Shown here piece by piece: positions 3 to 18,808 of a stretch of 20,000 bases of DNA. Under the pieces are notes generated by a model. The model did not search any database, was not told the DNA's origin, and saw nothing but the letters and a program-made list of their open reading frames with translations. The DNA comes from an uncultured virus (IMG/VR IMGVR_UViG_3300006217_000024) (Duplodnaviria; Heunggongvirae; Uroviricota; Caudoviricetes), in IMG/VR virus record IMGVR_UViG_3300006217_000024; one strand, written 5' to 3'. Positions within the stretch are counted from its first letter, which is position 1, and each line of letters opens with the position of its first letter. Position numbers and translations under genes: made by a program.

Positions 3-716
3 GACACAGGAAGCGATTACATCACCTACCAGCAAGACGCGAACCGTCTCATCGAATGGGCGATCACGCGCTTGGGCCTGGGCGAGTTCTTCAGGGCCCG
101 CACAAGTGACGCCGGAATCGTCGTGACCGGAAGGTTCGACCGCTTTGCCGACGGGTATGCGGGGCTTTGCAAGGCTCTCTCCTCTGGCGGCGCGAAACTC
201 AAGGCGATCTATGACGGTGAGCGCGTAGAGCTTTACGCCCTTCCGGTCGCCCGCTACACCGAGGGAGAGGCCCTTGACGCGGATGAGATCACGCTTGTGA
301 TCAAGCAGAACCGAGGGTGCGTGAACCATCTGATCTGTGCGGGAAAGGGTGAACTGCGGGACCGCATCGTGGTGCATCTCTACGCCGATCGCAAGCATCG
401 GATATCACGCACCCAGACCCTGTTCGGCGTGGATGAGGTTGCCGAGTTCTACGACTACAGCAACGCCGAGGAGGCAGATCTGTTAGAGAAGGGCATCGCC
501 AAGCTGCAGGAGTATCAAGAGACCAGCGAGATGGTGGAGGTCACGATCAACAGCGAACGCGAGCTCGATATAGGGGACGTGGTGGGTGCTACTGATCCAG
601 AGACAGGGCTTGCCGCCACAGCGACAGTAACCAAGAAGATCGTGACAAGCGATGGGGAGACATGGACGGCAGAGTACAAGGCCTCGGCCGCTGCCACAGT
701 CAGCATAGCCGCCTGA
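3..716 (+). CDS. Minor tail protein (Siphovirus Gp37/ReqiPepy6-like), 5'-truncated by window edge
   Basis: Frame open from base 3; 'VNHLICAGKGELRDRIVVHLYAD' and 'LDIGDVVGATD' resemble this family; lies upstream of the tail fibre. Confidence 0.7.
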   Translation, partial: DTGSDYITYQQDANRLIEWAITRLGLGEFFRARTSDAGIVVTGRFDRFADGYAGLCKALSSGGAKLKAIYDGERVELYALPVARYTEGEALDADEITLVIKQNRGCVNHLICAGKGELRDRIVVHLYADRKHRISRTQTLFGVDEVAEFYDYSNAEEADLLEKGIAKLQEYQETSEMVEVTINSERELDIGDVVGATDPETGLAATATVTKKIVTSDGETWTAEYKASAAATVSIAA

Positions 717-764
717 GTGACACCAGGCGCATGATGGAGGCGAAACGCGAAGGAAGGACAGGAT

Positions 765-1001
765 ATGGGTGTTACTTCTGGATACTCAGAGTACGTATGC
801 GAGGGCTGCGACGAGCTGGCCATGATCAAGGACGATGACAACACCGCCAAGAACAAGTGGCAGGAGATCGAGCGTGTGACCGCTGATGGGCAGCACATCA
901 AGCGGATGCTGTGCGAGAAGTGCCGCAAGGCCTACAGCCCCTTTGCTGCTGAACAGGACGCCGCCTTCAACGCCTTCATGGCCTCTCGCAGGAGCGCATG
1001 A
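765..1001 (+). CDS. Small CxxC...CxxC (Zn-binding) protein in the tail module
   Basis: 78-aa ORF with CEGC and CEKC; RBS-like AAGGA; ATGA overlap with next gene. Confidence 0.75.
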   Translation: MGVTSGYSEYVCEGCDELAMIKDDDNTAKNKWQEIERVTADGQHIKRMLCEKCRKAYSPFAAEQDAAFNAFMASRRSA

Positions 1002-1849
1002 TGGAGATCGTAACCGGCTTCCAGGGGAAGAACCACGTCACCGCCCAGCAGCTCTCTCGCCTGATCTCCGGCTTAGCAGGAGACGAGACCTATGTCCTTG
1101 ACACGCAGGACCAGCTGGCGATAGAAGTTGTCTCAGCCAACAAGGTGACCATAGCCACAGGCGATCTGATTGCTCAAGGCACCTACTTCACCAACGAGGC
1201 CCCCGAGGATCTGGTGATCGAGAACGGCGTAACGGGTCTGAACCGCAACGATCTCATCGTCTGCAGGTACGAGAAGGCGGAACCTGCAGTCGACGAAGAT
1301 GGGAATCCGGACTACACGATTCCGCGTATCGAAAGCGGTGACTGGGCTGTGGTGAAAGGCACGCCCTCCTCAGGCACCCCAGAAGACCCGTCGGTCGTCA
1401 CTGCATCCCTTCAGGATCCGAACACGTCCCTGGCAGAGTTCCCCGTTTACCGTATTCCGATACGCGGGCTGTCTGTAGGGACACCCGAGCGGATACCCCC
1501 GGTGATCCCCTCTATGCGTGAAGCTTGTGATTCCCTATCACAAACGCTCGAAGGCACATGGCAGCGCATCTCTGGAGGCAAGGGAAACGGACAGTGGTTC
1601 AATAGTCCGCTTCTTGGCGCCACGAAAATCATCCTCGCAGTCGAACATGATGCTCACGAGTCATTGATTGTTTGGCGCACGGTCACCCTCGAAGAGCTGG
1701 AGCAGGCGAACGCATCAAATCCAGTGGTTGTATCATCCTTGATCGAGCCGCAGACCTACTCCATCTCAGCATACATTTCGAATGGAAACATATATGGAAA
1801 GAACGCAAATCCGAACTTTGCGACAGTATGGATCTATGGACTCGTGTAG
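998..1849 (+). CDS. Tail fibre/receptor-binding protein: constant N-terminus fused to currently expressed variable cassette 1 (1529-1849)
   Basis: Last tail gene before the holin; recombination site at 1527-1543 encodes the DSLSQ junction shared with the silent cassettes. Confidence 0.85.
   Translation: MMEIVTGFQGKNHVTAQQLSRLISGLAGDETYVLDTQDQLAIEVVSANKVTIATGDLIAQGTYFTNEAPEDLVIENGVTGLNRNDLIVCRYEKAEPAVDEDGNPDYTIPRIESGDWAVVKGTPSSGTPEDPSVVTASLQDPNTSLAEFPVYRIPIRGLSVGTPERIPPVIPSMREACDSLSQTLEGTWQRISGGKGNGQWFNSPLLGATKIILAVEHDAHESLIVWRTVTLEELEQANASNPVVVSSLIEPQTYSISAYISNGNIYGKNANPNFATVWIYGLV
1527..1543 (+). repeat. Shufflon crossover site A, GTGATTCCCTATCACAA
   Basis: Dyad TTGTGA-TTCCCTA-TCACAA (1525-1543) with asymmetric 7-bp spacer; inverted copies at 2116-2132 and 2306-2322. 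Confidence 0.9.
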
Positions 1850-2130
1850 ATGGTCATATGGCATAGGGGGATGCAGAGCAGATCAACCGTTGGGCGAACC
1901 GTATGCGCGCCGCTTATGAGATTCCTAATACGTCCAGATATAGCATTCTCATAGAGAAGACATCTGGTTATCACGGCATCGGCTGAATACGAATCAAACC
2001 CCGCGATACCCATTACCCTGTAGTCTTCCTGGATCTTCGTGATGTCGACGGAAAAGACCTCGGCACCGTTAGGCCTAAGGGCAATATCACCCGCCGCAAC
2101 ACTGATTCTGGTGGACTGTAATAGGGAATA
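1834..2130 (-). CDS. Silent variable C-terminal cassette 3 (start-less, 98 aa: YSLLQSTRISVAAGDIALRPNGAEVFSVDITKIQEDYRVMGIAGFDSYSADAVITRCLLYENAISGRIRNLISGAHTVRPTVDLLCIPLCHMTIYTSP)
   Basis: Translated by hand; open from site C in the same frame as DSLSQ to TAG at 1834-1836; absent from the ORF track. Confidence 0.8.
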   Translation of the reverse strand, partial: YSLLQSTRISVAAGDIALRPNGAEVFSVDITKIQEDYRVMGIAGFDSYSADAVITRCLLYENAISGRIRNLISGAHTVRPTVDLLCIPLCHMTIYTSP

Positions 2131-2132
2131 AC
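2116..2132 (-). repeat. Shufflon crossover site C, GTTATTCCCTATTACAG
   Basis: 14/17 identical to site A, inverted, with the ATTCCCTAT core intact; abuts the stop of cassette 2. Confidence 0.8.
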
Positions 2133-2320
2133 TACAATGTGCGACTCATTATCGTTTTCCCGTTTTTCTGGATAGTAATCTGCGCGTATTCGCTTTGCGC
2201 CCATAGCTGCCCATACAGGTCTCCGTTTGTTATGCCTATTTGAAAAGCTTTATCAGTCACGGCAAATGTCAGTCTGCTGAGTTTGCTAATGAGTGTCTGT
2301 ACTTCTTGCGATAGGGAATC
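2132..2320 (-). CDS. Silent variable C-terminal cassette 2 (start-less, 62 aa: DSLSQEVQTLISKL...KTIMSRTL)
   Basis: Begins with the same DSLSQ junction as the expressed gene; 3' part of track ORF 2132..2422. Confidence 0.85.
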   Translation of the reverse strand, partial: DSLSQEVQTLISKLSRLTFAVTDKAFQIGITNGDLYGQLWAQSEYAQITIQKNGKTIMSRTL

Positions 2321-2322
2321 AC
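2306..2322 (-). repeat. Shufflon crossover site B, GTGATTCCCTATCGCAA
   Basis: 16/17 identical to site A, inverted; contains the invertase stop codon. Confidence 0.9.
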
Positions 2323-3029
2323 GCGGCCATCGGAAGCTCTCTCGCCGGTTGCGGTGCAGGCTGTGGCGGGATGATGCCCTTGTACATGTCATCGCAGCTT
2401 TTACCAAGCACCAATCGGGCAAGCCTGCGCTGCACCCGTCGCTTGGTCGCAGCAGTGATCTCCATGTAGTATCGGTAGCAGGTCTGGATATTGCTGTGTC
2501 CCATCATCTCAGCCACGTGCTCAATGGCTGCTCCGGCCTTGATCTCTACCGCACCAGTGCGCCAGTCGATGGATTCCCAGCTGAGATAGTAGTTCTCGGA
2601 GGGACGCAACCCCAAGGCGCTCTGCAGGATTAAGGTCGGTTCAAATAGATGTCCGACAAAGCCGCGGATAAGCTTTTTCAGGCGACGCTGCGTAAGCGTG
2701 TTGAGAGGCTCTTGAGGCTTTTGGGTAATCTCGATCCTCCGTGTGGGGTCTATGGCCTCCAAGCCCTCATCTATCGCCCACCGGATGATCTGTCTGAGGC
2801 ATTTGTACGCCTTCTCTGCGCCTGATGGTCCGCGCAATGGTGTCAACTCGTCAACCCACGCTTGCACATCCTTACGCGTGATCTCGCTAACCCTGAGCGC
2901 ACCCCAGCGTGGCAATACGTGACGGTTGATGGATGACTCGTAGCCGTAAACGGTATCGGGCTTTCTGCGCTCACGTTTCTCGGTGAGGTAGTCATTGCAA
3001 ATCTCGGTGATGGTGCTCAGTTCGTACAT
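2319..3029 (-). CDS. Tyrosine recombinase (shufflon invertase), apparently with an in-frame internal deletion
   Basis: RBS AAGGAGG before ATG 3029; core-binding domain, GLRPSE (catalytic R) and MMGHSNIQTCYRYY (H, Y) present; K and HxxR segment missing. Confidence 0.85.
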   Translation of the reverse strand: MYELSTITEICNDYLTEKRERRKPDTVYGYESSINRHVLPRWGALRVSEITRKDVQAWVDELTPLRGPSGAEKAYKCLRQIIRWAIDEGLEAIDPTRRIEITQKPQEPLNTLTQRRLKKLIRGFVGHLFEPTLILQSALGLRPSENYYLSWESIDWRTGAVEIKAGAAIEHVAEMMGHSNIQTCYRYYMEITAATKRRVQRRLARLVLGKSCDDMYKGIIPPQPAPQPARELPMAA

Positions 3030-3116
3030 AGCTCCTCCTTTGAGTGACAGCAGGCGCATCATCTGAGATGCGACATGTGGAGGATTATGTGGCCGTCACG
3101 AGCGAAAGGAGAGATT

Positions 3117-3554
3117 GTGGACTGGGTTACAGCAATAGCCTGGCAGCCGATTTTGGTGATAGTCGTGCTGATGGCGTTCGACATCATCACCGGCTTCGGC
3201 GGAGCCGCAAAGGAGGGTGTCATCCAATCAGGCAAGATGCGCGAGGGGCTATGGCATAAAGCGGGATTCCTGGGGTTGGTCGTCCTTGCGATCATCTGGG
3301 AAGTCGCGGTGCTGTGGATCAATTTCGACGCCTATCTAAAGGGCGCGGGCACCATCGTGCCGGAGTTCCCGGCGGTTTCCGTTGTGTGCGCATTCATAGC
3401 CTTGATCGAACTAATAAGCATCGTCGAGAACCTATGCGTACTCAACCCATCGATCGCGACTCTGCCCTTCATAAAGCAGCTGAAGGCTCACGATCCAGCG
3501 GCCCCGGACATCAAGGTCGAGGTTGATGACGGCGACACACGCACAGACGAGTAG
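3117..3554 (+). CDS. Phage holin (holin family 4-like)
   Basis: GTG start after AAAGGAG; three hydrophobic segments; 'DIITG...SGKMREGLWHK...ELISIVENL' pattern; upstream of the endolysin. Confidence 0.85.
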   Translation: MDWVTAIAWQPILVIVVLMAFDIITGFGGAAKEGVIQSGKMREGLWHKAGFLGLVVLAIIWEVAVLWINFDAYLKGAGTIVPEFPAVSVVCAFIALIELISIVENLCVLNPSIATLPFIKQLKAHDPAAPDIKVEVDDGDTRTDE

Positions 3555-3834
3555 CCCTACAGCCAGTCAAGAGCGGCGCGTGATGCTGATCGCGGCGCTG
3601 CTTGCCTTTGGTATGGTGGCCCTTGTCATGGCCATACGCCTCGGGTCGTGGTTTCTCGCGCCCGCTGAGGTGCCACCAGAGCCAGAGACGCTCCCTGCTG
3701 TTGATCTGCCCCTCCTCACGCCCCTGCAGCGCGAGGAGGCCCGCAGAAGCGGCGTGGGTGCTTATGAGTTTGACGGCATGTGGTATGTAAACGCGGCTTT
3801 GCCGCCTGAACACTGGGAGGACTGGATTGGCTAA
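3523..3834 (+). CDS. Small single-TM protein in the lysis cassette (start uncertain)
   Basis: Hydrophobic stretch then Pro-rich region; overlaps the endolysin start. Confidence 0.6.
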   Translation: MMTATHAQTSSPTASQERRVMLIAALLAFGMVALVMAIRLGSWFLAPAEVPPEPETLPAVDLPLLTPLQREEARRSGVGAYEFDGMWYVNAALPPEHWEDWIG

Positions 3835-4669
3835 GCTATACATCATCTGCGGCCATGGAGCAGGGGACCCTGGAGCCTGCGCGGCAGGCCAGACCGAGGA
3901 GGAGCGCGTCCGTGCGCTGGCGGCGATCATCAAAGAGCGCGGCGGCGCGGATGTGGAAGTGCTTGACACATCACGCAACTGGTACGTGGATGGCGGCATC
4001 AACAGTCTCACGTTGCCAGAGGGCGCTATGCTGTTGGAGCTGCATCGTGATTGGGCGGGAGAGAGCGCACGCGGTGCCCACGTGATCATCTATGCGGGCT
4101 TCGAGGCCGATGACTTCGATAAAGCCCTGGCATCCAAGCTGTCCGCCATCCTTCCGGGACGTTCGCAGACCATCGTGAAGCGCAGCGATCTGGCAAACCC
4201 GAAGCGTGCTGCCAGACGCGGCATCAACTACCGCCTCGTCGAGGTGGGCTTCATCTCCAACGCTGAAGACCGCAACATTTTCGACACGCGCATCACCGAC
4301 ATCGCTGACGCCATTCTGGCGGCAGCTGACATCAGCATCCTGGCAACGAACCCACAGCCTGCTCAACCTGCCCCTACGCCGTCCAGCCCATCGGCATCTA
4401 GCTCGGCCGAGAAAGCTGGCTCTGGTTTCGGCGGCACCTATCGCTGCACCGTCTCCAAGCTCAACGTGCGGGACGCTCCGGGCCTCAGCGGAAACATCGT
4501 CACCAGCTATGCCAAGGGACAGACAGTCGTGCTCGATGATTGGTACGTATCACGAGATGGATACATCTGGGGACGTTACACAGGTGCTCAGAGTGGCAAG
4601 TTGCGGTATGTGGCTGTTGGCCGTGCCACCGGCAAACCAGAGCCGGATGACTATCTGATAAAGGTCTAG
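3827..4669 (+). CDS. Endolysin: N-acetylmuramoyl-L-alanine amidase (Amidase_3) with C-terminal SH3-type cell-wall-binding domain
   Basis: ICGHG, E, LELH, LVEVGFISN motifs; P/S-rich linker; 'LNVRDAPG...DGYIWGRY' SH3b pattern. Confidence 0.92.
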   Translation: MAKLYIICGHGAGDPGACAAGQTEEERVRALAAIIKERGGADVEVLDTSRNWYVDGGINSLTLPEGAMLLELHRDWAGESARGAHVIIYAGFEADDFDKALASKLSAILPGRSQTIVKRSDLANPKRAARRGINYRLVEVGFISNAEDRNIFDTRITDIADAILAAADISILATNPQPAQPAPTPSSPSASSSAEKAGSGFGGTYRCTVSKLNVRDAPGLSGNIVTSYAKGQTVVLDDWYVSRDGYIWGRYTGAQSGKLRYVAVGRATGKPEPDDYLIKV

Positions 4670-5448
4670 CTGTCCAGCTCTCTGAGGTAGATGTGGATGA
4701 TGGGGACGGTGCCCATTATCATCTCGTCGGTGGACACGGTGGCATCATCCATCTTCGAGGCTGGGTAGGTGTGCGTTCCGAAGCGCACCATGTCCTCGCC
4801 CCGCTTGGACACGAACGGCTCAAGCTGCTCGTTGTGCAAGAGAGCGTACTGACGAGGTGTGATCTTGACGAAATCATAGGTGGGGATGTCTGTTGTGTAG
4901 ACCTCCCGCCTTATGTCGATGACCTCATACGATCCGGCCACGAGGGCTTCGGCTTGATCCCAGTCGGAGTGGGCGGAGATGTCCAGATAGCGCGTGGCCC
5001 CGTCGATGTGATAGGCGATGACCTCAGCTCCATCCCTCACGAGCAAACGCCCGTTGCGGCGTCCGATGAAGTTGATGCCAGGTGCGTCATCACGAGCGAC
5101 ATCATATACCCAGCTGTCATATGCGCTCGTTGATTTGACACCCCATTTCAGGATGGTGCCCACCGCAGGGGCTAGGCCGTAGCGCGGAGACCTGCCACGA
5201 CCGCCCTCATTGTAGGTGAGGCCGCCGCTGTTGATCTCCGTACGCACGAGGTTACACGGCACGTTGTCCTGCGACATCACCGCTTCATACAGCTCCTCGG
5301 CGGTGTCCTTGACCTTCTGCGGCACACGCTCCGGTCGGCATGTGTGCCAATACTCGAAGATGCTCCTGCCACCGTGCGTGTATTGCGACCACTCAGCAAT
5401 GCTGATGTAACCGCCATCGACATACTCAGTAATCGTGTCTTTCAGCAT
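4666..5448 (-). CDS. Putative ADP-ribosyltransferase (R-S-E class)
   Basis: LVR69, KS106-T-S108 and LDISAHSDWDQ165-A-E167-ALV in canonical order; RBS GAAAGG. Confidence 0.65.
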   Translation of the reverse strand: MLKDTITEYVDGGYISIAEWSQYTHGGRSIFEYWHTCRPERVPQKVKDTAEELYEAVMSQDNVPCNLVRTEINSGGLTYNEGGRGRSPRYGLAPAVGTILKWGVKSTSAYDSWVYDVARDDAPGINFIGRRNGRLLVRDGAEVIAYHIDGATRYLDISAHSDWDQAEALVAGSYEVIDIRREVYTTDIPTYDFVKITPRQYALLHNEQLEPFVSKRGEDMVRFGTHTYPASKMDDATVSTDEMIMGTVPIIHIYLRELDS

Positions 5449-5483
5449 CCGTTCGCCTTTCTATCAGGACGGCTGTTCTGTCA

Positions 5484-5523
5484 CGCCCCATCCCTCGATG
5501 ATGAGCTCATTGAGGGATGGGCG
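5484..5523. terminator. Strong intergenic hairpin (attenuator/terminator-like) upstream of the ART gene
   Basis: CCATCCCTCGATGA (5488-5501) pairs with TCATTGAGGGATGG (5507-5520), one G-T pair; no U-tract. Confidence 0.55.
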
Positions 5524-5533
5524 GTCATCTCCT

Positions 5534-6025
5534 CTATTCGTTCGATATCTTTCGCTTGCAAGATTCAAGCGATCCCGGAGTCACGTATACAGACCCATGG
5601 ACCTTGATGGCTTTGAGCTTACCCTCCGCTATCATCTGCGTTATCCGGCCAGGGGTAACGCCGAGTGACCGAGCGGCATCTGCGGCGGATACGGTGTGTG
5701 CTTTACGAATGCCAACGCCAACGCCGCATGCGAACTGGTCTTTGTCGTAGCCATCATCGTACCAGCCGAGATCTATGCCGTCCATGTAGTAGCCGATCCG
5801 GTCCTCGTCCTGCGGGGTGAGGGCGCGGGAGGCGAAAGCCTTGCGCATGAGTAGCGCAAGCCCCGTGTCAGGATGGTAGAACACATTGTCAATCGTGAAG
5901 CCGTCAAGGCCATAGCAATCCCTGCCTTCGCGCTCAGCGTCCTTGTTAATGGCGTCCCGCACAATGCGGTAGATCTGACCATACAGGATGCCCATCTGAT
6001 AACTCTTCTCTTCGCTTACTGTCAT
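5534..6025 (-). CDS. C-terminal HTH_17-type DNA-binding domain with an N-terminal helical domain resembling Cas11c (Cas8c C-terminus)
   Basis: HTH 'VSAADAARSLGVTPGRITQMIAEGKLKAIK' is clear; the Cas11-like assignment is by-eye only. Confidence 0.7.
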   Translation of the reverse strand: MTVSEEKSYQMGILYGQIYRIVRDAINKDAEREGRDCYGLDGFTIDNVFYHPDTGLALLMRKAFASRALTPQDEDRIGYYMDGIDLGWYDDGYDKDQFACGVGVGIRKAHTVSAADAARSLGVTPGRITQMIAEGKLKAIKVHGSVYVTPGSLESCKRKISNE

Positions 6026-6034
6026 GTCATCCCC

Positions 6035-6442
6035 CTATGCTACGAGCTCGTGTGCGATCTCGGTGAAGACCTGCATAGGCCGCCAGTTCTGGTTCTCGAT
6101 GAACCACTCGGCCGACGTTTGTTCAGTGAGCTGGGAGCGCATGCGGCTGTATATCTCAGCCACGGTATCCTCCGCTCCCTCTGCACCTTTGCCGCACTTA
6201 TCTACAAAGGATTCGTAGTCTCTGATGAGCCCTGAGCGGATGTCGAGCGCCCAAGCGATCTGCTTCTCAGAGCCCTTCAGCTCGGCCATGCCATCCTCGC
6301 CGTTCTTTGCAGCCCTGCACGCGTCGCAGGGATGAGACGCAAGCCATGCTGCTTTGCGCTCACGCTCACCGTGGACGTTGGTGCCGCAGATGTTGACCGT
6401 GGTGGTATGCCCGCAGGTGTGCTCGATCTCGTACTTTGCCAT
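6035..6442 (-). CDS. Conserved phage/mobile-element hypothetical protein (CGH...CxxC Zn-finger and 'LKGSEKQIAWA.DIR' motif)
   Basis: Clean ORF, RBS GAAAGGG, first gene after the promoter at 6473-6501. Confidence 0.8.
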   Translation of the reverse strand: MAKYEIEHTCGHTTTVNICGTNVHGERERKAAWLASHPCDACRAAKNGEDGMAELKGSEKQIAWALDIRSGLIRDYESFVDKCGKGAEGAEDTVAEIYSRMRSQLTEQTSAEWFIENQNWRPMQVFTEIAHELVA

Positions 6443-6465
6443 ATCATGCCCTTTCTCTTGCTGTC

Positions 6466-6523
6466 ATTAAACATTTTATAATATTGTTTAGCGTTTGTCT
6501 ATACGATTTTGAAAATGTTTAAT
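6466..6523 (-). promoter_or_regulatory. Sigma70-type promoter flanked by a perfect 12-bp inverted repeat (operator)
   Basis: -35 TAGACA (6496-6501), 17-bp spacer, -10 TAAAAT (6473-6478); ATTAAACATTTT 6466-6477 and AAAATGTTTAAT 6512-6523; extra half-site TGTTTA 6485-6490. Confidence 0.8.
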
Positions 6524-6689
6524 CAGATAGTAGGCCAGCCTCTGCTTCTGCTGTCGCATCCATCCAATCCTCGCATGACCTGAGGGCAGCTACCACTGCC
6601 CATAGCTCCGGTATGGTGTCGGCGTATTGTTCGACGATCTGAGCGCATGCGCTGATGGTTTCAGTAACTTCTGCGGAATTGTTTAGCAT
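6519..6689 (-). CDS. Small acidic hypothetical protein (56 aa)
   Basis: RBS GAAAGGA before ATG 6689. Confidence 0.55.
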   Translation of the reverse strand: MLNNSAEVTETISACAQIVEQYADTIPELWAVVAALRSCEDWMDATAEAEAGLLSD

Positions 6690-6752
6690 GACGGGTCCTT
6701 TCACGAGGGTAATCCCACCATTTTGACTGCTAAAACAGACAGAAACCGTGAA

Positions 6753-7007
6753 ACGATGTTACATGGTTTCTAGATTGAGAATAATCTTTTACTGGTGATT
6801 CATTACGAAATGGAGCAGTTCAGCGCAGTCTTGAAAACTGTTGAAGGGAAACCTTCCGTGGGTTCGAATCCTACTTCCTCCGCCAGGTTTGACCAGTTCA
6901 GGATATGTTTTTCGTCCTTCACCTCAAATGCCCTTTACTGCGTACAAACGTACTGTTTTTACCAGTTTTTACCCTCGTTTACCAGTTAATGTTACACGAT
7001 GTTACAT
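6753..7007. other. attP region with arm-type repeats
   Basis: ACGATGTTACAT at 6753-6764 and 6996-7007; TTTACC at 6958, 6968 and 6978 (10-bp phasing); AT-rich; surrounds the tRNA fragment. Confidence 0.75.
6825..6885 (+). tRNA. 3' fragment of tRNA-Ser(TGA), attP core; not a complete tRNA
   Basis: Anticodon arm GCAGT-CT-TGA-AA-ACTGT, long variable arm GAAGG-GAAA-CCTTC, T arm GTGGG-TTCGAAT-CCTAC, 3' end TTCCTCC-G-CCA; no D arm upstream. Confidence 0.88.
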
Positions 7008-8162: not shown

Positions 8163-8204
8163 GATACAATGCTCCTGCCTGGCCCTTTATGGGCCACTAT
8201 GCCT

Positions 8205-8288
8205 GGAGCCCCGCCTGATCCGCCAAGATTGCAGCGGGGCTTCGCTTATATATGCGACACCTTCCCTACCCTACTCAAGGTAGGAAGG
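8205..8288 (-). terminator. Two hairpins upstream of int (terminator/regulatory)
   Basis: AGCCCCGC 8207-8214 pairs with GCGGGGCT 8234-8241; CCTTCCCTACC 8260-8270 pairs with GGTAGGAAGG 8279-8288. Confidence 0.55.
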
Positions 8289-8304
8289 AGCCGTCATGAA
8301 GAAC

Positions 8305-8709
8305 CTATCTCTCTGGACTCTCACTATAATCAACATCGCCATATGCTGTATTTCCTTGGTCATCACCATAATCAACGTTGCCAACATCATCACTCGTATG
8401 TCCTAGCCCCACGAATGACAGGATCGACAAGATCAGCCCGAGGGTGGTCACGAAAAGCGTAGCCCCAGCAACAATATGGGCGTGGTGGTTGCTCTTTGCC
8501 TGCTTCTCCTGTTCTTCAGCAACCCTTCTTTGTTCCTCTACGACTTGCTCTAACAGTTCGCTTTGTCTCTCCTTCCATTCCCATTCAGCTTCCATGGCAG
8601 CATTTTCTGCATCTGCCCTAGCTTTGAATGCCTGAGAGATGGCGCTGGTATCCATCCTGACTTTGCCGAGGTTAAGGTTGAGCGACGGAATGTCATTCAT
8701 ACCACCCAC
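8305..8709 (-). CDS. Coiled-coil single-TM moron protein
   Basis: RBS GAGGT; charged coiled coil, hydrophobic helix, acidic tail. Confidence 0.7.
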   Translation of the reverse strand: MGGMNDIPSLNLNLGKVRMDTSAISQAFKARADAENAAMEAEWEWKERQSELLEQVVEEQRRVAEEQEKQAKSNHHAHIVAGATLFVTTLGLILSILSFVGLGHTSDDVGNVDYGDDQGNTAYGDVDYSESPER

Positions 8710-8751
8710 ACTACCTCACTTCTCCGCTAGCTTGGAACCAAACGACCTTGT

Positions 8752-9510
8752 CTAGCTGATGTGACCAGGCGGCCCACCAGCACGCCCTATCTGCTTTGGT
8801 CCATGTATGCGTTCGTATTCCTGCCGCTTCTGCTCTTGGATGATCTCCCAATCCTCTTCATGCGTGTGGCAGTAGAACCACCATTTGAGCGGAATCCGAT
8901 CATATGCGCGGTCCGGAATTCGCTCTTCTCTCGGGTCATATACAGAATGGATTCTATAATCGTCTTCGGAGATGAGCTCGAACTCGCGTATGCCATGCTC
9001 GTATACCTCTTTCGCTTTTTCCGAAGGGGTAAGGCGCACCATTTCACCCTCCATGTGCTGATCACCCAAAATCAGAACATCTCCGTAATCATGTTTTGAT
9101 TCAATGTTCTTAAGATATGAGCGAAGGAAATATACGGCTCCACGACCTATCATTGCATGAAGCACTTCACGCTCTATGGTTGTGAGATGGTTAAAGGTAG
9201 AAGAGATGTCCCTTAGATGGTCATCCTGTTTTCTTTGTATGCGCTCCTGCTCTCTTCGTTCCTCTTCCATGCGCATTCGTTCTGATTCGCCGTCCTGCTT
9301 TTCCTTCTCAACAGCAGCAGCTTTCTTGGCTTCTGAATCAACGAGAAGCCCGTGCAAGCCCCATCCTGCGACTACACCTGCGATAGTCGTTATAAAAGGC
9401 AATGCTGGATAGGCTGTTGATATTGCTTCTTCGGGCGAAAGACCAAGCCAGAACGCAATCGTTCCCACATCCACAATGAAGCCTATTATGGTCATGGCCT
9501 TGTAGATCAC
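8752..9510 (-). CDS. Membrane-anchored moron protein (two N-terminal TM segments), co-transcribed with the repressor
   Basis: Start abuts the repressor stop; RBS GGAGGT; two hydrophobic helices, coiled coil, then a globular domain. Confidence 0.75.
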   Translation of the reverse strand: MIYKAMTIIGFIVDVGTIAFWLGLSPEEAISTAYPALPFITTIAGVVAGWGLHGLLVDSEAKKAAAVEKEKQDGESERMRMEEERREQERIQRKQDDHLRDISSTFNHLTTIEREVLHAMIGRGAVYFLRSYLKNIESKHDYGDVLILGDQHMEGEMVRLTPSEKAKEVYEHGIREFELISEDDYRIHSVYDPREERIPDRAYDRIPLKWWFYCHTHEEDWEIIQEQKRQEYERIHGPKQIGRAGGPPGHIS

Positions 9511-9933
9511 TTACGCTACCTCTTCCACTTCGGGCGAAACTTGTATAGATTCCTCCCTATCTTTTTCGATACGGACGGAATCACCGTCCGACATAAGCCT
9601 TGCCGTTTGCACTAAAGCACCGCGCCCCACCTTGTTCATGGACTCGAAGTAGCCGTTGAGGGCTTCTTGGTCCGGGTCGGAATAGATGCGCTGTTCTGGT
9701 GGCGTACGTCCTCCCAATTCGTCGAGAGTGCAATTAAGGGCATCCGCAAACTTCCAAGCCTTTTCATATGAAAAAGACACAAGCCCCTGTTCATATTGAG
9801 TATATGTATTCGGGTTGATACCCAAGTGCTTCGCAAAAGCTTTCGCACTTTTGTAGCCTGCCTCTTTCCTCTTCTTCTGAAGATGCGAGCCTATTTGTTT
9901 CAAGTCCGTTTTAGTGGTCATAAAAAGCTCCAT
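9511..9933 (-). CDS. CI-like XRE-family repressor (alternative start 9921)
   Basis: 'LQKKRKEAGYKSAKAFAKHLGINPNTYTQYEQG...FADALNCTLDEL' HTH; transcribed towards int, divergent from the early genes. Confidence 0.9.
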   Translation of the reverse strand: MELFMTTKTDLKQIGSHLQKKRKEAGYKSAKAFAKHLGINPNTYTQYEQGLVSFSYEKAWKFADALNCTLDELGGRTPPEQRIYSDPDQEALNGYFESMNKVGRGALVQTARLMSDGDSVRIEKDREESIQVSPEVEEVA

Positions 9934-10058
9934 CCTTTTTCACATAACTAAATCTTAGACAGAATGTAGAAAAATATCAAGTAAACCACTAAAAATATAT
10001 TGACATCATTTTGTTTAATCACTATATTTGCTTTAGAAAGTTTGTTAGGTCACTAAAA
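9909..10058. promoter_or_regulatory. Lysis/lysogeny switch region: rightward promoter and operator-like repeats
   Basis: TTGACA 10000-10005, 17 bp, TATATT 10023-10028; CACTAAAA at 9909-9916(-), 9987-9994(+) and 10051-10058(+). Confidence 0.75.
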
Positions 10059-10071
10059 AGTACCTTGAAAG

Positions 10072-10127
10072 CTGAATATCTCGAACGATGACCTCCGTTT
10101 CCGGTGGTCATCGTTCGAGATATTCAG
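10072..10127 (+). repeat. Perfect 22-bp inverted repeat (long hairpin) in the early leader
   Basis: CTGAATATCTCGAACGATGACC 10072-10093 is the exact reverse complement of 10106-10127. Confidence 0.9.
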
Positions 10128-10155
10128 TACATGAGAGACAGATTAGGAGCCACCC

Positions 10156-10383
10156 ATGAAGCGCATGACCACCGAGAAGTTCTATGAAACTTGCGAAGAG
10201 TATTACACCCTCGTCCATGACTGTGGGATGAAGGCCGAGGAAGCCCTCGAAGAAGTGAAGCAATGGCTCAAGAGCACGAAGATCTACGGCTTCTCGGAGA
10301 TGTTGACGAAATTCGGGATTGGAACGCATGAGGAGCTTTATCGCTATGGCGGTCAGCTTGCAGGCGAGATAGCAGCGTTCTGA
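10156..10383 (+). CDS. Hypothetical early protein
   Basis: RBS AGGAG; first ORF of the rightward operon. Confidence 0.75.
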   Translation: MKRMTTEKFYETCEEYYTLVHDCGMKAEEALEEVKQWLKSTKIYGFSEMLTKFGIGTHEELYRYGGQLAGEIAAF

Positions 10384-10398
10384 AGGAGTTGAGGAGCC

Positions 10399-10560
10399 AT
10401 GCCGATGATCTTGATCCAACTCACCCTCGTAGCTGCCGGTTTCTACCTCGGAGGCCCAGCCACGAAAGCAGGAGGAGCGTTCCTCTTGGCCGGAGTGGCG
10501 GCGTTCGGAATCGCTGTCGGCTGGTGGGCGTACGGAAAAGCGAAAGGAGGAAACCGATGA
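10399..10560 (+). CDS. Small membrane protein (53 aa, MPMILIQLTLVAAGFYLGG...WWAYGKAKGGNR)
   Basis: Translated by hand; RBS GAGGAG; ATGA overlap with the Cro-like gene; not in the ORF track. Confidence 0.65.
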   Translation: MPMILIQLTLVAAGFYLGGPATKAGGAFLLAGVAAFGIAVGWWAYGKAKGGNR

Positions 10561-10778
10561 AGTTCAACATGGAAACTATGGGTGCGAACATCCGCCGCCT
10601 GCGCCGGGCGAAGGACTGGACGCAAGAGGAACTAGCAGATCGTCTTGATGTGAGCGCGGCTTCCATCATCAACTATGAAAACGGCAAGGGAAGCCCCAGC
10701 TATCAAGTTGCATGGAAGATGTGTGATCTGTTCGGGGTCACCCTAGATGCGCTAGGCAGCCGTCAGACAGCGGCATAA
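10557..10778 (+). CDS. Cro-like XRE HTH regulator
   Basis: RBS AAAGGAGG; 'NIRRLRRAKDWTQEELADRLDVSAASIINYENG'. Confidence 0.9.
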   Translation: MKFNMETMGANIRRLRRAKDWTQEELADRLDVSAASIINYENGKGSPSYQVAWKMCDLFGVTLDALGSRQTAA

Positions 10779-10839
10779 CACCAACTTTTGCACCTTGACA
10801 TCGTGATTACAGGAAAGCGGCTACCGAAAGGAGCTGCCT

Positions 10840-11004
10840 ATGGAAGAGAACGAATACCTGCGCGCCTGCAAGCGCCTGCCGACCAAAGACCTCGTTGAAG
10901 AGCTTCGGTGCAGAGAGGGCGTAGAGGCTTCCATGCTTGCCGTGGATGTGGAAGCCTCAGTGAAGGTGTCAGGTCCTGCGATCGTGCTCGTCGTCATCGA
11001 CTAG
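10840..11004 (+). CDS. BC1881-like small protein (54 aa)
   Basis: Translated by hand: 'TKDLVEELRCREGVE...VSGPAIVLVVID'; RBS GAAAGGAG; convergent with KTSC. Confidence 0.7.
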   Translation: MEENEYLRACKRLPTKDLVEELRCREGVEASMLAVDVEASVKVSGPAIVLVVID

Positions 11005-11207
11005 CCGATCCGGGCGTACGGATAGCAGCCCTTGATGTTCGCGTGGAAGTACCTCCCGTGCGAGCTTGCGGCTATCAAGGCGTGATAGACCGATTCGGGC
11101 ACACCGGAGTACTGATAAAGGCCCCCGGAGTTGAAGCGGATATAGAGAGCGCCGTTCTCATATCCGACCGCGTTCAGATCGCTGGAGCTGACGTGCTGCA
11201 TCTGCAT
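11001..11207 (-). CDS. KTSC domain protein
   Basis: 'VSSSDLNAVGYENGALYIRFNSGGLYQYSGVPESVYHALIAASSHGRYFHANIKG'; RBS GGAGGT. Confidence 0.92.
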   Translation of the reverse strand: MQMQHVSSSDLNAVGYENGALYIRFNSGGLYQYSGVPESVYHALIAASSHGRYFHANIKGCYPYARIG

Positions 11208-11314
11208 GGTCCCCACCTCCTTCCAGACGGAAGGATACCACCCGCTTTCCTGTATTCACGATGTCGAGAAGGCAAGTAAGAGTTTTTCAGAATTGCACTT
11301 TGAAAGGAGAACCG

Positions 11315-11491
11315 TTGGTAACCATAACTATCTCGGCAGACACAACGGAAGAGGCAGTTTCGACTTTGCGCGCCATCACAGAGCCGAAACTGCTGATCAA
11401 CAAGAAGGATCTCGCTCAACTCGTTACGAATTCACCCACTCGTGGTAACGACGAAGATGGAACAGCATCTCCTGAACGGAGATATCTCTAA
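11315..11491 (+). CDS. Small hypothetical protein
   Basis: TTG start after GAAAGGAG; 3' end overlaps an antisense gene. Confidence 0.45.
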   Translation: MVTITISADTTEEAVSTLRAITEPKLLINKKDLAQLVTNSPTRGNDEDGTASPERRYL

Positions 11492-11633
11492 TGGCGCAAG
11501 CGAGAGCCTGCATATCCATACCACCATCAGCATTCATTCGGCTTTCGATCAGGTCCTGGATCTTATCTTTCTGCACCTCAGAAAGCCCTTGTTCGTTAAC
11601 GAGCGTAATGAAGTCATCGAAGTTCTTAGCCAT
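11424..11633 (-). CDS. Small hypothetical protein (MAKNFDDF...LRRYHEWV)
   Basis: Strong RBS GGGAGGT; helical protein-like composition. Confidence 0.7.
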   Translation of the reverse strand: MAKNFDDFITLVNEQGLSEVQKDKIQDLIESRMNADGGMDMQALACAIRDISVQEMLFHLRRYHEWVNS

Positions 11634-11762
11634 GTTTGCACCTCCCTTCTGGGAAGAGTGTAGCAGCAGCTCTCACGGGGTAGGTGTGGAAGCCAACGGA
11701 GCAGGACAGCACTCCATTTCGCACCCATCCCCTGAGGTCTGCTTAAGGAGAAAGGAGGAACC

Positions 11763-11984
11763 ATGGACTACCCGATCACCATGCCCACGCGCGAAGTGGC
11801 GGCACAGCTCGGCACCAATCCTGCCACGGTGCTGGAGTACGCAAGACGGAAGGAGGACCCCTTGCCCCTTCGCTACATCAAGGGCAAGCGCAATGGTGGC
11901 TTCGTCGTCACAGCAGACTTCCTCGAGTGGATAGATCGGAATACATGCAGCTACAACGAAAGGAGAGACTATGGGACAAAATAA
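11763..11984 (+). CDS. Excisionase-like HTH DNA-binding protein
   Basis: 'MPTREVAAQLGTNPATVLEYARR...FLEWI'; RBS AAAGGAGG. Confidence 0.7.
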   Translation: MDYPITMPTREVAAQLGTNPATVLEYARRKEDPLPLRYIKGKRNGGFVVTADFLEWIDRNTCSYNERRDYGTK

Positions 11985-12147
11985 TGTGCGGCCGCCCGTC
12001 CAAAGCATGCCGCACAATGCCAGAGGCACGTTCATGGTAACACGTGAGCGCCGGGAAGACCTCCGGAACACCGCTATAGCCATTGGCATGGCGTTAGGGA
12101 TGGTGGCACTCCCCCACATTCTGGCGGCCCTGGAAAGGCTGTCATGA
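11971..12147 (+). CDS. Small protein with a C-terminal hydrophobic helix (58 aa)
   Basis: Translated by hand; RBS AAAGGAG; ATGA overlap with next gene. Confidence 0.6.
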   Translation: MGQNNVRPPVQSMPHNARGTFMVTRERREDLRNTAIAIGMALGMVALPHILAALERLS

Positions 12148-12569
12148 GCACCGCGAAAACGGTCAACGTGGCTGATGCCGAAGTCTATGTGCGCTCAGCC
12201 TGTAGGTGGATCAAGCGAAATCCTGAGAAGTTCAAGCGCCTCATGCACCTCACGCATCAGCAGGTGGATAAGGGCGCTTCTTCTGTGCAGCGCGGAGATA
12301 TCTACAACCTGGCGAAGCGTGCTGGATTCTCTGTCACCGACTGCGAAGAGCTCAAGCGGAACAACAATCTCTGGGCACCTCTTGCCCGATATATGGTGAT
12401 GCTCCGTCCCCGCTTGGCACGGGTGCTGCACTTCCGCGATGCGGGATGCGACCATGTGGATATGGATGCCATCTGGCGCGAGGAGGTCAACCAGGGCACT
12501 ACATTCCTTGCTCCCAACTGGCAGGCCGCGAAGCGTGCCTGCGAAGAGGGATGCGTGAGCGCAGCATGA
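12144..12569 (+). CDS. Hypothetical phage protein
   Basis: Coupled ATGA overlaps on both sides. Confidence 0.75.
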   Translation: MSTAKTVNVADAEVYVRSACRWIKRNPEKFKRLMHLTHQQVDKGASSVQRGDIYNLAKRAGFSVTDCEELKRNNNLWAPLARYMVMLRPRLARVLHFRDAGCDHVDMDAIWREEVNQGTTFLAPNWQAAKRACEEGCVSAA

Positions 12570-12946
12570 AGCAGTCATTCGAGATACCGGGGCGCTTGCC
12601 GGGGCTCAATGAGTACACCTCGGAGAATCGCACCCATCCCATGAGAGCAGCCAAGCAGAAGCACAACACCGAGGATATGATCAAGTGGTGTGCTAAGGCT
12701 GCTCACATCAAGCCCATGCGCTCCCCTATCCATGTGCACATCAAGTGGATAGAGCCGAACATGAGGCGGGACAAGGACAACATCCGCTTTGCCGTGAAGT
12801 ACATCTTGGATGCCTTGGTGAGCCTTGGGACCATCAAGGATGACGGCTGGAAGCAGATAGGTGGCCGTAGGCATCCAGGTATCACAGATGAATACATGGT
12901 CAACAAGTCCAATCCCCGCGTTGTGGTGGAGTTAGAGGAACTATGA
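12566..12946 (+). CDS. RusA-like Holliday junction resolvase
   Basis: 'GRLPGLNEY...RRDKDNI...KYILDALV..GTIKDD...NPRVVVELEE'. Confidence 0.85.
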   Translation: MKQSFEIPGRLPGLNEYTSENRTHPMRAAKQKHNTEDMIKWCAKAAHIKPMRSPIHVHIKWIEPNMRRDKDNIRFAVKYILDALVSLGTIKDDGWKQIGGRRHPGITDEYMVNKSNPRVVVELEEL

Positions 12947-13476
12947 CGCGGATGGACTGGACCACGGCAGAAGTTGCCTACCTCGTTGAGAATGCAGGAC
13001 GTATCCCCAAGCGTGAGATCTGTAAGTATCTGAAGCGTCGCTCCGAATCGGTGAAGCAAAAGGCCAAGGCACTCCGAGCGCAAGGCATCCCGGTTGATCT
13101 CCGATGCTACCGCCCGAAGCTGGAGGCTTGCCCTGCCTGTGGGTGCATGAGGTCAACGCTTGGAAAGCACGGGATATGCGAGGTGTGCAGAAAGCGTGCC
13201 CAACTCACAGCCATACATTCCCGCATCTCACGCCTTCTGCATCAGATTCCCTTCGAGGAGCGCGAGAGATACGCAGAGACCGAGGCTGAGACTGAAAGCG
13301 CGAATGATCCGATGCCTCGCTCCCCCAGCCTAGAAGGACTCTCCTATTACGCAACATGTAAGGCTAAGGAAGCACGTGACCGGGCTATGGAAGCCTGGCA
13401 GATCCGCAATCTGACACGTCAGGTAAAGGCGGCCCAGAAGCGCAAAGAGCGCATCCAGAAAAAGGCAAATCGTTGA
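12943..13476 (+). CDS. Hypothetical protein with HTH/Myb-like N-terminus and CxxC...CxxC
   Basis: 'WTTAEVAYL...EICKYLKRRSESVKQKA'; CPAC and CEVC. Confidence 0.7.
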   Translation: MTRMDWTTAEVAYLVENAGRIPKREICKYLKRRSESVKQKAKALRAQGIPVDLRCYRPKLEACPACGCMRSTLGKHGICEVCRKRAQLTAIHSRISRLLHQIPFEERERYAETEAETESANDPMPRSPSLEGLSYYATCKAKEARDRAMEAWQIRNLTRQVKAAQKRKERIQKKANR

Positions 13477-13512
13477 CACCTTGCGCCCTGAACTGGAAAG
13501 AAAGGAGCACTG

Positions 13513-13827
13513 ATGGCACGCGAGAATCTTAAAACCGCCCGTAATGACAAGGGCATGACCCAGCAGCAGGTAGCGGATCACTTGGGGATCAGCCTGAGGT
13601 ATTACCAGATGCTCGAATCTGGGGACTTCAACGGGAGATATGAACTCTGGGACGCCTTAGAGGACTTGTTTCAGGTACATCAACGGAAACTCCGAGAGAT
13701 GCAAGGTAATCATCCCGTTCAAGCAGCCAATCGGTTGGAACCTCAAACAGGTCAGCGATCCGCACAAGCGTCGTTAGAGGCGGTGCAGTGCGCCCTTGTT
13801 CGTAGTTCTGATAGGAGCGCAGGGTAA
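13513..13827 (+). CDS. XRE-family HTH regulator
   Basis: 'NLKTARNDKGMTQQQVADHLGISLRYYQMLESG'; RBS AAAGGAG. Confidence 0.85.
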   Translation: MARENLKTARNDKGMTQQQVADHLGISLRYYQMLESGDFNGRYELWDALEDLFQVHQRKLREMQGNHPVQAANRLEPQTGQRSAQASLEAVQCALVRSSDRSAG

Positions 13828-13912
13828 TGTCTAAGGCTCTTGCCATTTGCTCTTGCGTAAATCCGGAGTGCATACGCGCGCTCCGAAGCCTGTCCTTGAA
13901 GCCCATAGTCAT
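13628..13912 (-). CDS. XRE-family HTH regulator (antisense-overlapping the previous gene)
   Basis: 'RLRSARMHSGFTQEQMARALDITLRSYQNYEQGRTAPPLTTLVRIADLFEVPTDWLL'; RBS AAAGGAG. Confidence 0.85.
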   Translation of the reverse strand: MTMGFKDRLRSARMHSGFTQEQMARALDITLRSYQNYEQGRTAPPLTTLVRIADLFEVPTDWLLERDDYLASLGVSVDVPETSPLRRPRVHISR

Positions 13913-13923
13913 CCGCTCCTTCT

Positions 13924-14011
13924 TTTACGAAACATTCTAACGTGAAGCATTGTTTCTTGCTACGAAGCTTTACTTCGTGTAATGTGTGAGTACGTTATAA
14001 AGTTTCGTAAA
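13924..14011. promoter_or_regulatory. Divergent control region with nested inverted repeats
   Basis: TTTACGAAAC 13924-13933 and GTTTCGTAAA 14002-14011; inner ACGAAG 13962-13967 and CTTCGT 13973-13978; AT-rich. Confidence 0.65.
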
Positions 14012-14035
14012 TCAACACTACGTAAAGGAGGAACC

Positions 14036-14395
14036 ATGCTGACGTACATGGAACCCGTGGAGCTTCGCAAGCTGCGGCTGTTCGACAAGAGCATCTATCG
14101 CGAGTTCGCGAACAAGACACTGATCGAGTTCTTGGAGAAGGCGAAGGTTGGGGATGTATTCGAAGTGACGGGCTTCCCGGATACAGGCGAAGACCTCACG
14201 AAGCTCACCCAGAAGATCAGGCAGGCCATAGACACCGAACGATTCTATGAGGACAAGAGAAGCGTTGTGAAGGTCTTTCAGCGCAAAGGGAGGCTGTTCT
14301 TGGAACGCACCGAAACATACGAACAGCGCCAGCAACGCCTGCGAGAAGAAGAGCAGAAGCAGCACACCCCAAGGATCTTGAAACCAGCAATCTAG
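14036..14395 (+). CDS. Hypothetical protein
   Basis: RBS AAAGGAGG before ATG 14036. Confidence 0.75.
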   Translation: MLTYMEPVELRKLRLFDKSIYREFANKTLIEFLEKAKVGDVFEVTGFPDTGEDLTKLTQKIRQAIDTERFYEDKRSVVKVFQRKGRLFLERTETYEQRQQRLREEEQKQHTPRILKPAI

Positions 14396-14410
14396 AAAGG
14401 AGAAACACCC

Positions 14411-17491: not shown

Positions 17492-18081
17492 TGGCTGGGG
17501 GATACACCTTCCATCAAAGCTATCACGAGGCTCTCAAAGCCCGTAGCCCGGAGGAGCGCCTGGCTCTCTACGATGCCATGAGCCTCTATGCCTTCGAGGC
17601 CACGGATACCGAGTTTGATGATCCTAACCTCGCCATGGCTTGGAGCCTTATCAAGCCGAACCTAGATGCTTCGCTCAAGCGGTCGAAGACCAATGCAGAT
17701 AACGCCCGTAAAAGGAGCGTTAAAGCCACATCTAAAACGACCGTACCAGCGACCGTTAAAACGGTGGCAAAACCGACCGCTAAAACGAGCGTTGAAACAC
17801 CTGTAGAAACGGTCGCTTTACCTGAATCATTAGGAGAGGAATGGAGTGGAGTAGAGAAGGAGAATCTTTCCCTTGGAAAGAAAGATTCTCCTTCTTCCCG
17901 GGCAGGAGACGGTGCGGCTGCGGCTAAGGCCGCACCGCCCCTGCCGAAAGGCTGGGAAGCGACGGGGTGCATCTGCACGCACTCGGGATGCCGTGAGAAT
18001 CAGCTCAGGGGCAGCAACGGTGAGCTATGGTGTCCGGCCTGTGACCGAGACGCACTCCGTGAGATGGGGGTGATCTCATGA
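17491..18081 (+). CDS. DUF6291-type replication initiator/replisome organiser
   Basis: N-terminus 'YTFHQSYHEALK...EERLALYDAMSLYAF'; repetitive central linker; C-terminal Cys cluster. Confidence 0.7.
   Translation: MAGGYTFHQSYHEALKARSPEERLALYDAMSLYAFEATDTEFDDPNLAMAWSLIKPNLDASLKRSKTNADNARKRSVKATSKTTVPATVKTVAKPTAKTSVETPVETVALPESLGEEWSGVEKENLSLGKKDSPSSRAGDGAAAAKAAPPLPKGWEATGCICTHSGCRENQLRGSNGELWCPACDRDALREMGVIS
17715..17820 (+). repeat. Degenerate 12-bp tandem repeats inside the replication gene (candidate origin iterons)
   Basis: Units such as ACCGTTAAAACG, ACCGCTAAAACG, AGCGTTGAAACA, CCTGTAGAAACG. Confidence 0.6.
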
Positions 18082-18790: not shown

Positions 18791-18808
18791 CGATCTAAAG
18801 GAGTCTAC

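Follow-up and report, generated by a model that had tools for sequence, protein, structure and literature searches.

Can the phage behind the uncultured virus record IMGVR_UViG_3300006217_000024 still exchange the end of one of its tail proteins by DNA inversion, or has this copy become fixed in one state? The question arises from a locus at 998-3029 of a 20,000-nucleotide (nt) stretch of this record, referred to here as the window, in which the last tail gene is followed by inverted, site-headed reading frames and a convergent tyrosine recombinase gene. An initial annotation had interpreted this locus as a three-cassette shufflon with its own invertase. No phage tail switch other than Rin-type shufflons is known to use a tyrosine invertase, and these have been described in two host groups. 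They are published for prophages of Bifidobacterium and Eggerthella lenta (PMC6109161, PMC8778435). The present analysis indicates that the locus is a Rin-family shufflon and that, in this copy, the switch has most likely become fixed in the state that expresses cassette a, a combined statement given a probability of about 0.8. Assignment to the Rin family alone is held with higher confidence than this figure. The locked state of the window copy, argued from its sequence, is probable, with confidence lowered by the possibility of a trans-acting enzyme or residual activity. The invertase deletion and the absence of a fourth cassette are new, as are the site variant and the host group (mouse-gut Eggerthellaceae); the breadth of C-termini described below is a further point of interest.

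Recombination sites and cassettes

Site A (GTGATTCCCTATCACAA, 17 bp, plus strand, 1527-1543) lies inside the last tail gene and recurs in inverted orientation on the minus strand as site B (2306-2322, 16/17 positions, one mismatch) and site C (2116-2132, 14/17, three mismatches). These three are the only matches to site A with up to three mismatches in the window, compared with 0.03 expected on average from dinucleotide shuffles, and none of 200 shuffles reached three. The A/B and A/C inverted pairs were also recovered by a repeat search (pairs I3 and I9), and all three sites share an exact 9-bp core, ATTCCCTAT. The recurrence reported in the initial annotation was therefore recovered in full, as was the structure proposed for site A. 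Its rix-like full dyad (1525..1543, plus strand) consists of 6-bp inverted arms, TTGTGA and TCACAA, separated by the asymmetric 7-bp spacer TTCCCTA. Two further candidates were rejected. A degenerate fourth site near 1861-1875 (ATCCCCCTAT, minus strand) has two mismatches in the 7-bp spacer, lacks arms, and coincides with neither a unitig break nor a loose end in the sequencing runs. The TTCCCTA at 8262 is a lone core without arms.

The tail gene (998-1849, plus strand) encodes 283 amino acids (aa) and reads the core of site A as GAT TCC CTA, giving D178, S179, and L180. Its constant part (Rc; 998..1528, plus strand, residues 1-177), the body of a tail-tip or putative receptor-binding protein, matches phrog_13141 and phrog_9994. 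The expressed C-terminus, cassette a (1529..1849, plus strand), starts with DSLSQ and comprises 106 aa and a stop codon. Two silent cassettes follow on the minus strand. Cassette b (2132..2320, read from 2320 down to 2135) runs from site B, also starts with DSLSQ, and encodes 62 aa and a stop, while cassette c (1834..2130, read from 2130 down to 1837) runs from site C, starts with YSLLQ, and encodes 98 aa and a stop. All three are in the same register at the equivalent codon, and the silent ones are inverted and have no start codons; the translations agree with the frames and lengths first noted. Pairwise BLASTP detects no mutual similarity among the C-termini except between c and c2, an allele of c found in a database protein.

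The third component is a rin-like tyrosine recombinase gene (2319-3029, minus strand) convergent with the tail gene. Site B holds its stop codon, with the TGA at 2319-2321 forming bases 2-4 of the site, in line with the earlier observation that the recombinase gene ends inside the outermost site. The product has 236 aa compared with 324 in full-length relatives.

Cassette a has one clear relative, P0265 (116 aa, 85% identical), among 1.84 billion representatives; five other matches are long repetitive proteins with incoherent Pfam matches and were taken as spurious. An a-like C-terminus is found on another constant part in P0016. A blastn search of a phage collection with window 700-3600 gave no match, and a search of viral contigs and metagenome contigs with the constant part gave no relatives, in collections that may lack records near the window.

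Switching in near-identical phages

Of 24 listed runs, 20 contain the stretch; these comprise mouse-gut or gut metagenomes together with runs that bear the label of one coded organism. Logan contigs from four of these 20 (X1, X6, X15, and X17) were compared with window 500-3600, and loose ends were located by script; run evidence of this kind consists of contigs, which drop rare variants. Unitigs from the runs end at the three sites, with ends at 1539 in X6 and 1538 in X17, and unitigs of X1 and X15 cross site A unbroken. A junction between the constant part and cassette b is present in X6, and one between the constant part and cassette c in X17. These are the A×B and A×C junctions that the initial annotation had named as the products to look for, and both also exist as proteins (P0003 and P0006). 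The reciprocal product was recovered as well in X6, where an inverted site precedes the head of cassette a. In X15 the head of cassette c is joined to the rin-side flank. The depth of the unitig joining the constant part to cassette a is about half that of the constant part itself (12.2 vs. 24.1 in X6 and 4.6 vs. 10.4 in X17), which fits a mixed population.

Protein databases lead to the same result. Seven proteins share a constant part that is 100% identical over 179 aa and carry seven different C-termini, unrelated to one another except for c and c2 (81%). P0003 ends exactly in cassette b and P0006 exactly in cassette c, the latter with the junction CDSLLQS, which places strand exchange within the shared core. 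P0004 carries cassette d, which is absent from the window, and P0001 carries c2, the 81% allele of c. The remaining three (P0002, P0005, and P0250) each have another, unrelated C-terminus, and the one in P0005 weakly matches an H-type lectin signature, at 21 bits and under the cut-off. Exchange at these sites occurs in near-identical phages. The count of three cassettes given at the outset holds for the window copy, whereas near-identical phages have at least four, with seven kinds of C-terminus on an identical constant part. Through the seven C-termini joined to a single constant part and the mixtures of junctions inside single runs, the public data provide an unusually plain view of such a switch in use.

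Relation to the Rin shufflons

The Rin shufflon was published by Mavrich et al. in 2018 for prophages integrated at dnaJ2 in Bifidobacterium breve and B. longum (PMC6109161). As described there, the constant part of the receptor-binding-protein gene encodes 168 aa and the variable C-terminal cassettes 95-100 aa, the rix site is 11 bp (TTCCCTAACCC), the tyrosine invertase has no arm-binding domain, and inversions take place within single cultures. For clade 1 prophages of E. lenta the same arrangement is reported, with ttccgtat as an 8-bp repeat and an H-type lectin signature in some cassettes (PMC8778435). A literature search for shufflons of Eggerthellaceae, Adlercreutzia, or Enterorhabdus and for tyrosine-recombinase tail-fibre shufflons since 2019 returned nothing relevant beyond these two papers.

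The window locus is homologous to the Bifidobacterium system in its constant part, its invertase, and the core of its site, which bears out the kinship with Rin first suggested. Two named B. longum proteins, P0035 and P0110, align with 65% of the query and share 46% identity with the constant part (E about 1e-37). The B. longum junction reads WDSLTQ and, when back-translated, fits rix on the same codons that encode DSLSQ here. Among ten Bifidobacterium-type viral contigs with enough flank, nine have a convergent recombinase that is 36-40% identical to the full-length enzyme and sits behind one to four inverted copies of rix. In Bifidobacterium phage PMBT6 and in an uncultured siphovirus, GGGATTCCGTAACCC lies next to a homologue with 35-36% identity. 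Eggerthellaceae relatives contain GGGATTCCGTATCCC sites in the same layout and in varied orientations (one locus with one plus and three minus sites, another with three and two), with a core that matches ttccgtat.

Comparison of the window site with the 11-bp rix, one of the checks initially proposed, gave a partial agreement. The first seven bases (TTCCCTA) are identical and lie on the same codons, but the next four differ (TCAC vs. ACCC). The sites of relatives form a graded series (TTCCGTATCCC, TTCCGTAACCC, and TTCCCTAACCC), and the window site thus belongs to a graded family sharing ATTCC[C/G]TA. The variant bridges the Bifidobacterium and Eggerthella cores, and the locus extends Rin shufflons to a phage of mouse-gut Eggerthellaceae.

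The resemblance to Bifidobacterium Rin extends to the overall arrangement, with a constant gene part bearing one site, promoterless, inverted, site-headed cassettes, and a convergent tyrosine recombinase that has no arm-binding domain. The sizes are also similar, at 177 aa plus 62-106 aa here and 168 aa plus 95-100 aa there. The systems differ in host (Eggerthellaceae) and integration site (tRNA-Ser vs. dnaJ2), in the bases past the 7-bp core (TCAC(AA) vs. ACCC), in the clear GTGA/TCAC dyad arms found here, in their unrelated cassette sequences, and in the 88 catalytic-domain residues that the window invertase lacks. The E. lenta prophages are from the same bacterial family and have the same layout; their H-type lectin signature has a counterpart here in P0005, weak and under the cut-off. 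They differ in having a host of another genus, a TTCCGTA rather than a TTCCCTA core, and GGGA/TCCC rather than GTGA/TCAC arms, and the window copy is in addition a deletion derivative.

Assembly of the Bifidobacterium-type IMG/VR contigs (L062-L141) is also informative. Of the 73 with a constant-part site, 28 end less than 200 nt past it, which is the assembly signature of an invertible site. The 27 contigs with more than 3 kb past the site have plus/minus site counts from 1/0 to 4/1.

More distant systems share the principle. The shufflon of plasmid R64 uses the tyrosine recombinase Rci and several sfx sites with a 7-bp spacer to perform multiple inversions, which swap the C-terminus of the adhesin-like protein PilV and in this way select the partner cell. 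Unlike the present locus, it acts on a conjugative-pilus protein of a plasmid rather than on a phage tail protein. Gin of Mu, Cin of P1, and Min of p15B are serine invertases that work with an enhancer and Fis. They resemble the present system in that a phage-encoded inversion swaps tail-fibre C-termini, with host range changed in those systems (also described in PMC6109161). However, the enzyme flanking the cassettes here has only tyrosine-recombinase Pfam domains (PF14659, PF22022, and PF00589) and is not of the serine type.

From these comparisons a mechanism can be proposed. In an intact system, codons 1-177 would form the constant 5' part and lead into a site whose spacer TTCCCTA falls on the Asp-Ser-Leu codons. 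Downstream and on the opposite strand would lie promoterless C-terminal cassettes, each headed by an inverted site in register, and a small convergent tyrosine recombinase with SAM-like, central, and catalytic domains would end inside the outermost site. The recombinase is predicted to swap strands within the shared spacer, so that inversion between the gene site and any inverted site would fuse a new C-terminus to the constant part. Further inversions would reorder the cassettes, and recombination between directly oriented sites could delete one. In the window copy, cassette d would have been lost and, before or after this, the catalytic core of the invertase.

A deletion in the invertase gene

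The invertase of the window carries an in-frame internal deletion of 264 bp (88 aa), with its junction at ~2534-2544. This is evident from G001, the nearest genome compared, which matches window 2113-6889 at 99-100% and has 264 extra bases inside rin. The 88 missing residues are kept in all eight aligned relatives and include TKTxK, DRLH, GRPxGRII, and M[KR]NLRHTW. Profile alignment to the XerC-like structure 4a8e places the LRH box and the strands preceding it in the missing part, and in tyrosine recombinases of solved structure the lysine region and the second arginine box correspond to TKTxK and NLRH. This lysine and the second arginine are essential for catalysis in tyrosine recombinases. 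Pfam Phage_int_SAM_3 (PF14659) and Phage_int_M (PF22022) are both present in the window invertase, but PF00589 reaches 23.5 bits and so misses its cut-off of 27.1; the full-length 324-aa form of G001 scores 42.9 bits. The window copy therefore differs from Rin invertases in having no intact catalytic domain.

The consequences for the initial annotation are mixed. The enzyme is of the tyrosine type by its domains and its homology to Rin, as had been proposed, but it is not intact, and the idea that the phage can display three tips fails for the window copy as it stands, with an invertase lacking TKTxK and NLRH. Given the deletion in its catalytic core, the window copy is most likely unable to invert unless a full-length enzyme is supplied in trans. 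As a probable natural locked mutant with full-length relatives, it would offer a control for any effect of the switch on adsorption and host range.

The same deletion junction is present in three protein entries, namely P0241 (the window's own), P0244 (one substitution), and the fragment P0245. All four runs examined contain an undeleted rin, and no piece shown bridges the window's deletion junction; an exact scan for this junction found none among metagenome contigs, a collection that may lack records near the window.

Other damage to the gene was observed in relatives. P0133 has a second, independent in-frame rin deletion, of 109 aa, between two WAID-coding repeats (WAID|RLH), and the same junction is also found in run X17 at a depth like that of its neighbours (window about 2769; 2793-2809 in L023, the G001 locus). 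In P0132 and P0209, invertase relatives that are 80-88% identical, the C-terminal halves are replaced or frameshifted. One Bifidobacterium rin allele has a mid-gene stop, and its description in PMC6109161 makes no mention of an internal deletion. Decay of the invertase gene appears common.

There are accordingly two distinct rin deletions, one of 88 aa (the window and two further entries) and one of 109 aa, and the N-terminal DNA-binding half is intact in both. In-frame deletion of the invertase at short repeats might be a recurrent and selected way of locking a Rin shufflon in one tip state, although this idea is speculative and rather unlikely to be correct. The truncated protein could also persist as a site-binding factor that blocks the wild-type enzyme of a co-infecting phage.

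Absence of cassette d

A cassette d lies between c and b in all four runs examined and in G001 but is absent from the window. This emerged from the comparison with relatives that had been suggested for cassette order. In the same four runs, cassette d sequence is joined on both sides of site C, and site C itself looks like a composite of two sites that the four-cassette form contains, as expected from recombination between directly oriented sites flanking d. The window's own site-C junction is represented by only one 46-nt unitig, in run X6 (depth 6.3).

Site C also marks a boundary between phages. DNA homology between the window and G001 begins inside it (window 2113-2134 vs. L023 2217-2238), and to its left neither the minor tail gene nor the constant part nor cassettes a and c are similar to G001 at the DNA level. 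The different constant part of G001 nevertheless carries an identical 17-bp site (L023 1306-1322). A homology break inside the site suggests, from the sequence comparison, that Rin sites may also act as joints for the exchange of whole tip modules between phages.

Alternative explanations

That the locus does not undergo site-specific inversion at all is barely credible. On this account the C-termini would be fixed strain differences spread by homologous recombination, and the repeats would simply be conserved coding sequence for DSLSQ. The repeat does lie in coding sequence and encodes a conserved motif, and mosaicism is real, as G001 combines another constant part and other a and c cassettes with identical b, rin, and lysis genes. 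However, the silent cassettes are inverted, have no start codons, and sit at the locus of the expressed gene, and both reciprocal junction types are present. Single runs labelled with one organism show mixtures, with the junction of constant part and cassette a at about half depth, and a dedicated recombinase ends in the outermost site and adjoins the sites in Bifidobacterium-type and Eggerthellaceae loci. Inversions have moreover been described within single cultures for the homologous system (PMC6109161). A different doubt concerns the assembly, in that the rin deletion and the missing cassette might both be shortcuts in a real genome with four cassettes and a full-length invertase. The deletion junction is found in none of the four runs examined, the share of sampled words present in a run is at most 0.98, and the site-C junction is seen only as the one short unitig of X6; shufflons also tangle assemblies, as the early ends of 28 of 73 Bifidobacterium-type contigs illustrate. 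Nonetheless, an assembly error in rin is unlikely because the joint shares only about four exact bases (CCTT in CCTT[A/G]ATC), an overlap too small to mislead a k-mer assembler, because exactly 264 bp are missing and the frame is preserved, and because the junction recurs in three protein entries from three contigs, one with an extra substitution. With the site-C junction backed by a unitig of an independent run, this account as a whole is very unlikely.

It is also improbable, but less so, that the shufflon in this genome is still active, either through residual activity of the 236-aa invertase or through a full-length copy acting in trans. The sites and both silent cassettes are intact and identical to those recombining in the public runs. 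The truncated protein retains the SAM-like and central DNA-binding domains as well as GLRPSE, GHS, and the YRYY tyrosine, and a second copy nearby is conceivable, as the window's genes lie on a 79-kb contig of about two phage genomes with an attP-type junction. Against this, the missing 88 residues hold the TKTxK and NLRH motifs kept in eight of eight relatives and aligned to the LRH box, PF00589 falls under its cut-off, only one rin gene is found among the G001 matches, and the window runs unbroken through the shufflon whereas the run unitigs break at the sites. A Rin-family shufflon frozen with cassette a expressed remains the best explanation, and several observations weigh against it in whole or in part. 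The truncated protein keeps the first arginine, the last histidine, and the tyrosine, making residual or altered activity conceivable. All three entries with the deletion are from one source collection (JGI/IMG) and possibly not independent, and the same collection contains full-length invertase forms that could act in trans. As regards the locked state, the junction evidence comes from runs other than the window's own source. The site matches only the first seven bases of the published rix, and cassette b, at 62 aa, is shorter than the 95-100 aa of Bifidobacterium cassettes and may be an incomplete tip. The tail-tip role is drawn from gene position and weak structural leads: an AlphaFold2 model of the constant part with cassette a is poor (mean predicted local distance difference test score (pLDDT) 53, under 50 at the C-terminus), a Foldseek search with it against the PDB gave no match at E <= 0.001, and PDB sequence and profile searches with the tail protein returned nothing relevant.

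A putative receptor-binding role

The gene's position, the homology of its product to the Bifidobacterium constant part, and the structural leads together suggest a tail-tip or receptor-binding protein. In a comparison with lactococcal-type siphophage receptor-binding proteins (p2, 1358, TP901-1), the top Foldseek rows include those of p2 (2x53, 1zru) and 1358 (4l92, probability 0.72), but with E >= 0.1 and template modelling (TM) scores of about 0.2. An Atlas model (pLDDT 0.78) has neighbours in the Gp10_C and Gp53-like_C baseplate clusters at TM 0.61-0.67. Both sets of matches are taken as leads. The cassettes would accordingly be receptor-binding tips whose switching may set host range.

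Genome context and host

A minor tail protein gene (3..716, plus strand), with its 5' end outside the window, lies upstream of the shufflon. It matches phrog_538 (E 6.8e-27), and the Pfam family Sipho_Gp37 scores 23.8 bits in it, below the cut-off. It is followed by a small gene (765..1001, plus strand) for a 78-aa protein with two CxxC pairs, which matches phrog_28750 (E 8e-7), a family of unknown function. A small gene with a CxxC pair is found at the same place in G001 (L023 about 564-811), and the protein could be a tail assembly or chaperone factor.

The lysis genes lie on the far side of rin. A holin gene (3117..3554, plus strand; PF05105, E 3.7e-14) is followed by an endolysin gene (3827..4669, plus strand) encoding an amidase_3 domain (PF01520, E 1.1e-11; phrog_489) with a weak SH3 tail. 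Between the endolysin gene and attP, three leftward genes (4666-6442, minus strand) form a moron-like block encoding a 260-aa protein of no family, a 163-aa protein with a weakly supported, excisionase-like helix-turn-helix (HTH) at its C-terminus, and a 135-aa protein that matches phrog_16123.

The attP core (6825..6889, plus strand) corresponds to the 3' part (63 nt) of a tRNA-Ser(TGA) and lies between the lysis and moron region and the integrase gene; no whole tRNA was found in the window. In G001 the stretch matching 6825 onwards ends inside a complete tRNA-Ser(TGA) on the integrase side, and the lysis side and integrase side are on two different contigs. The split of the two sides in G001 and the partial tRNA-Ser indicate that the window shows an attP arrangement rather than a simple integrated prophage. 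It thus derives from an excised or circular molecule, from a tandem copy, or from the record of a phage genome. The 79-kb contig carrying the window's genes is estimated at about twice a phage genome, and together with the attP-type junction this makes a tandem or concatemeric form possible. The phage integrase (7002..8162, minus strand, 386 aa; phrog_1, E 3.7e-15; PF00589, 25.4 bits) is distinct from the invertase, and the remainder of the window (8200-20000) contains HTH repressor-type and early genes. For annotation, the locus illustrates two pitfalls: contigs end at sites of this kind, and an 'integrase' next to tail genes is not the integrase.

Record titles place the hosts of related loci in the Eggerthellaceae, including Adlercreutzia, Parvibacter, Gordonibacter, Enteroscipio, and uncultured mouse-gut members, and the phage itself is taken to be temperate and tailed, with a mouse-gut member of this family as its host. 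Variation among its relatives also reaches the lysis genes: at 3163, in the holin region, a contig of run X15 passes into 255 nt that are absent from both the window and G001 contig 28, a hint that this run contains another mosaic version of the lysis module.

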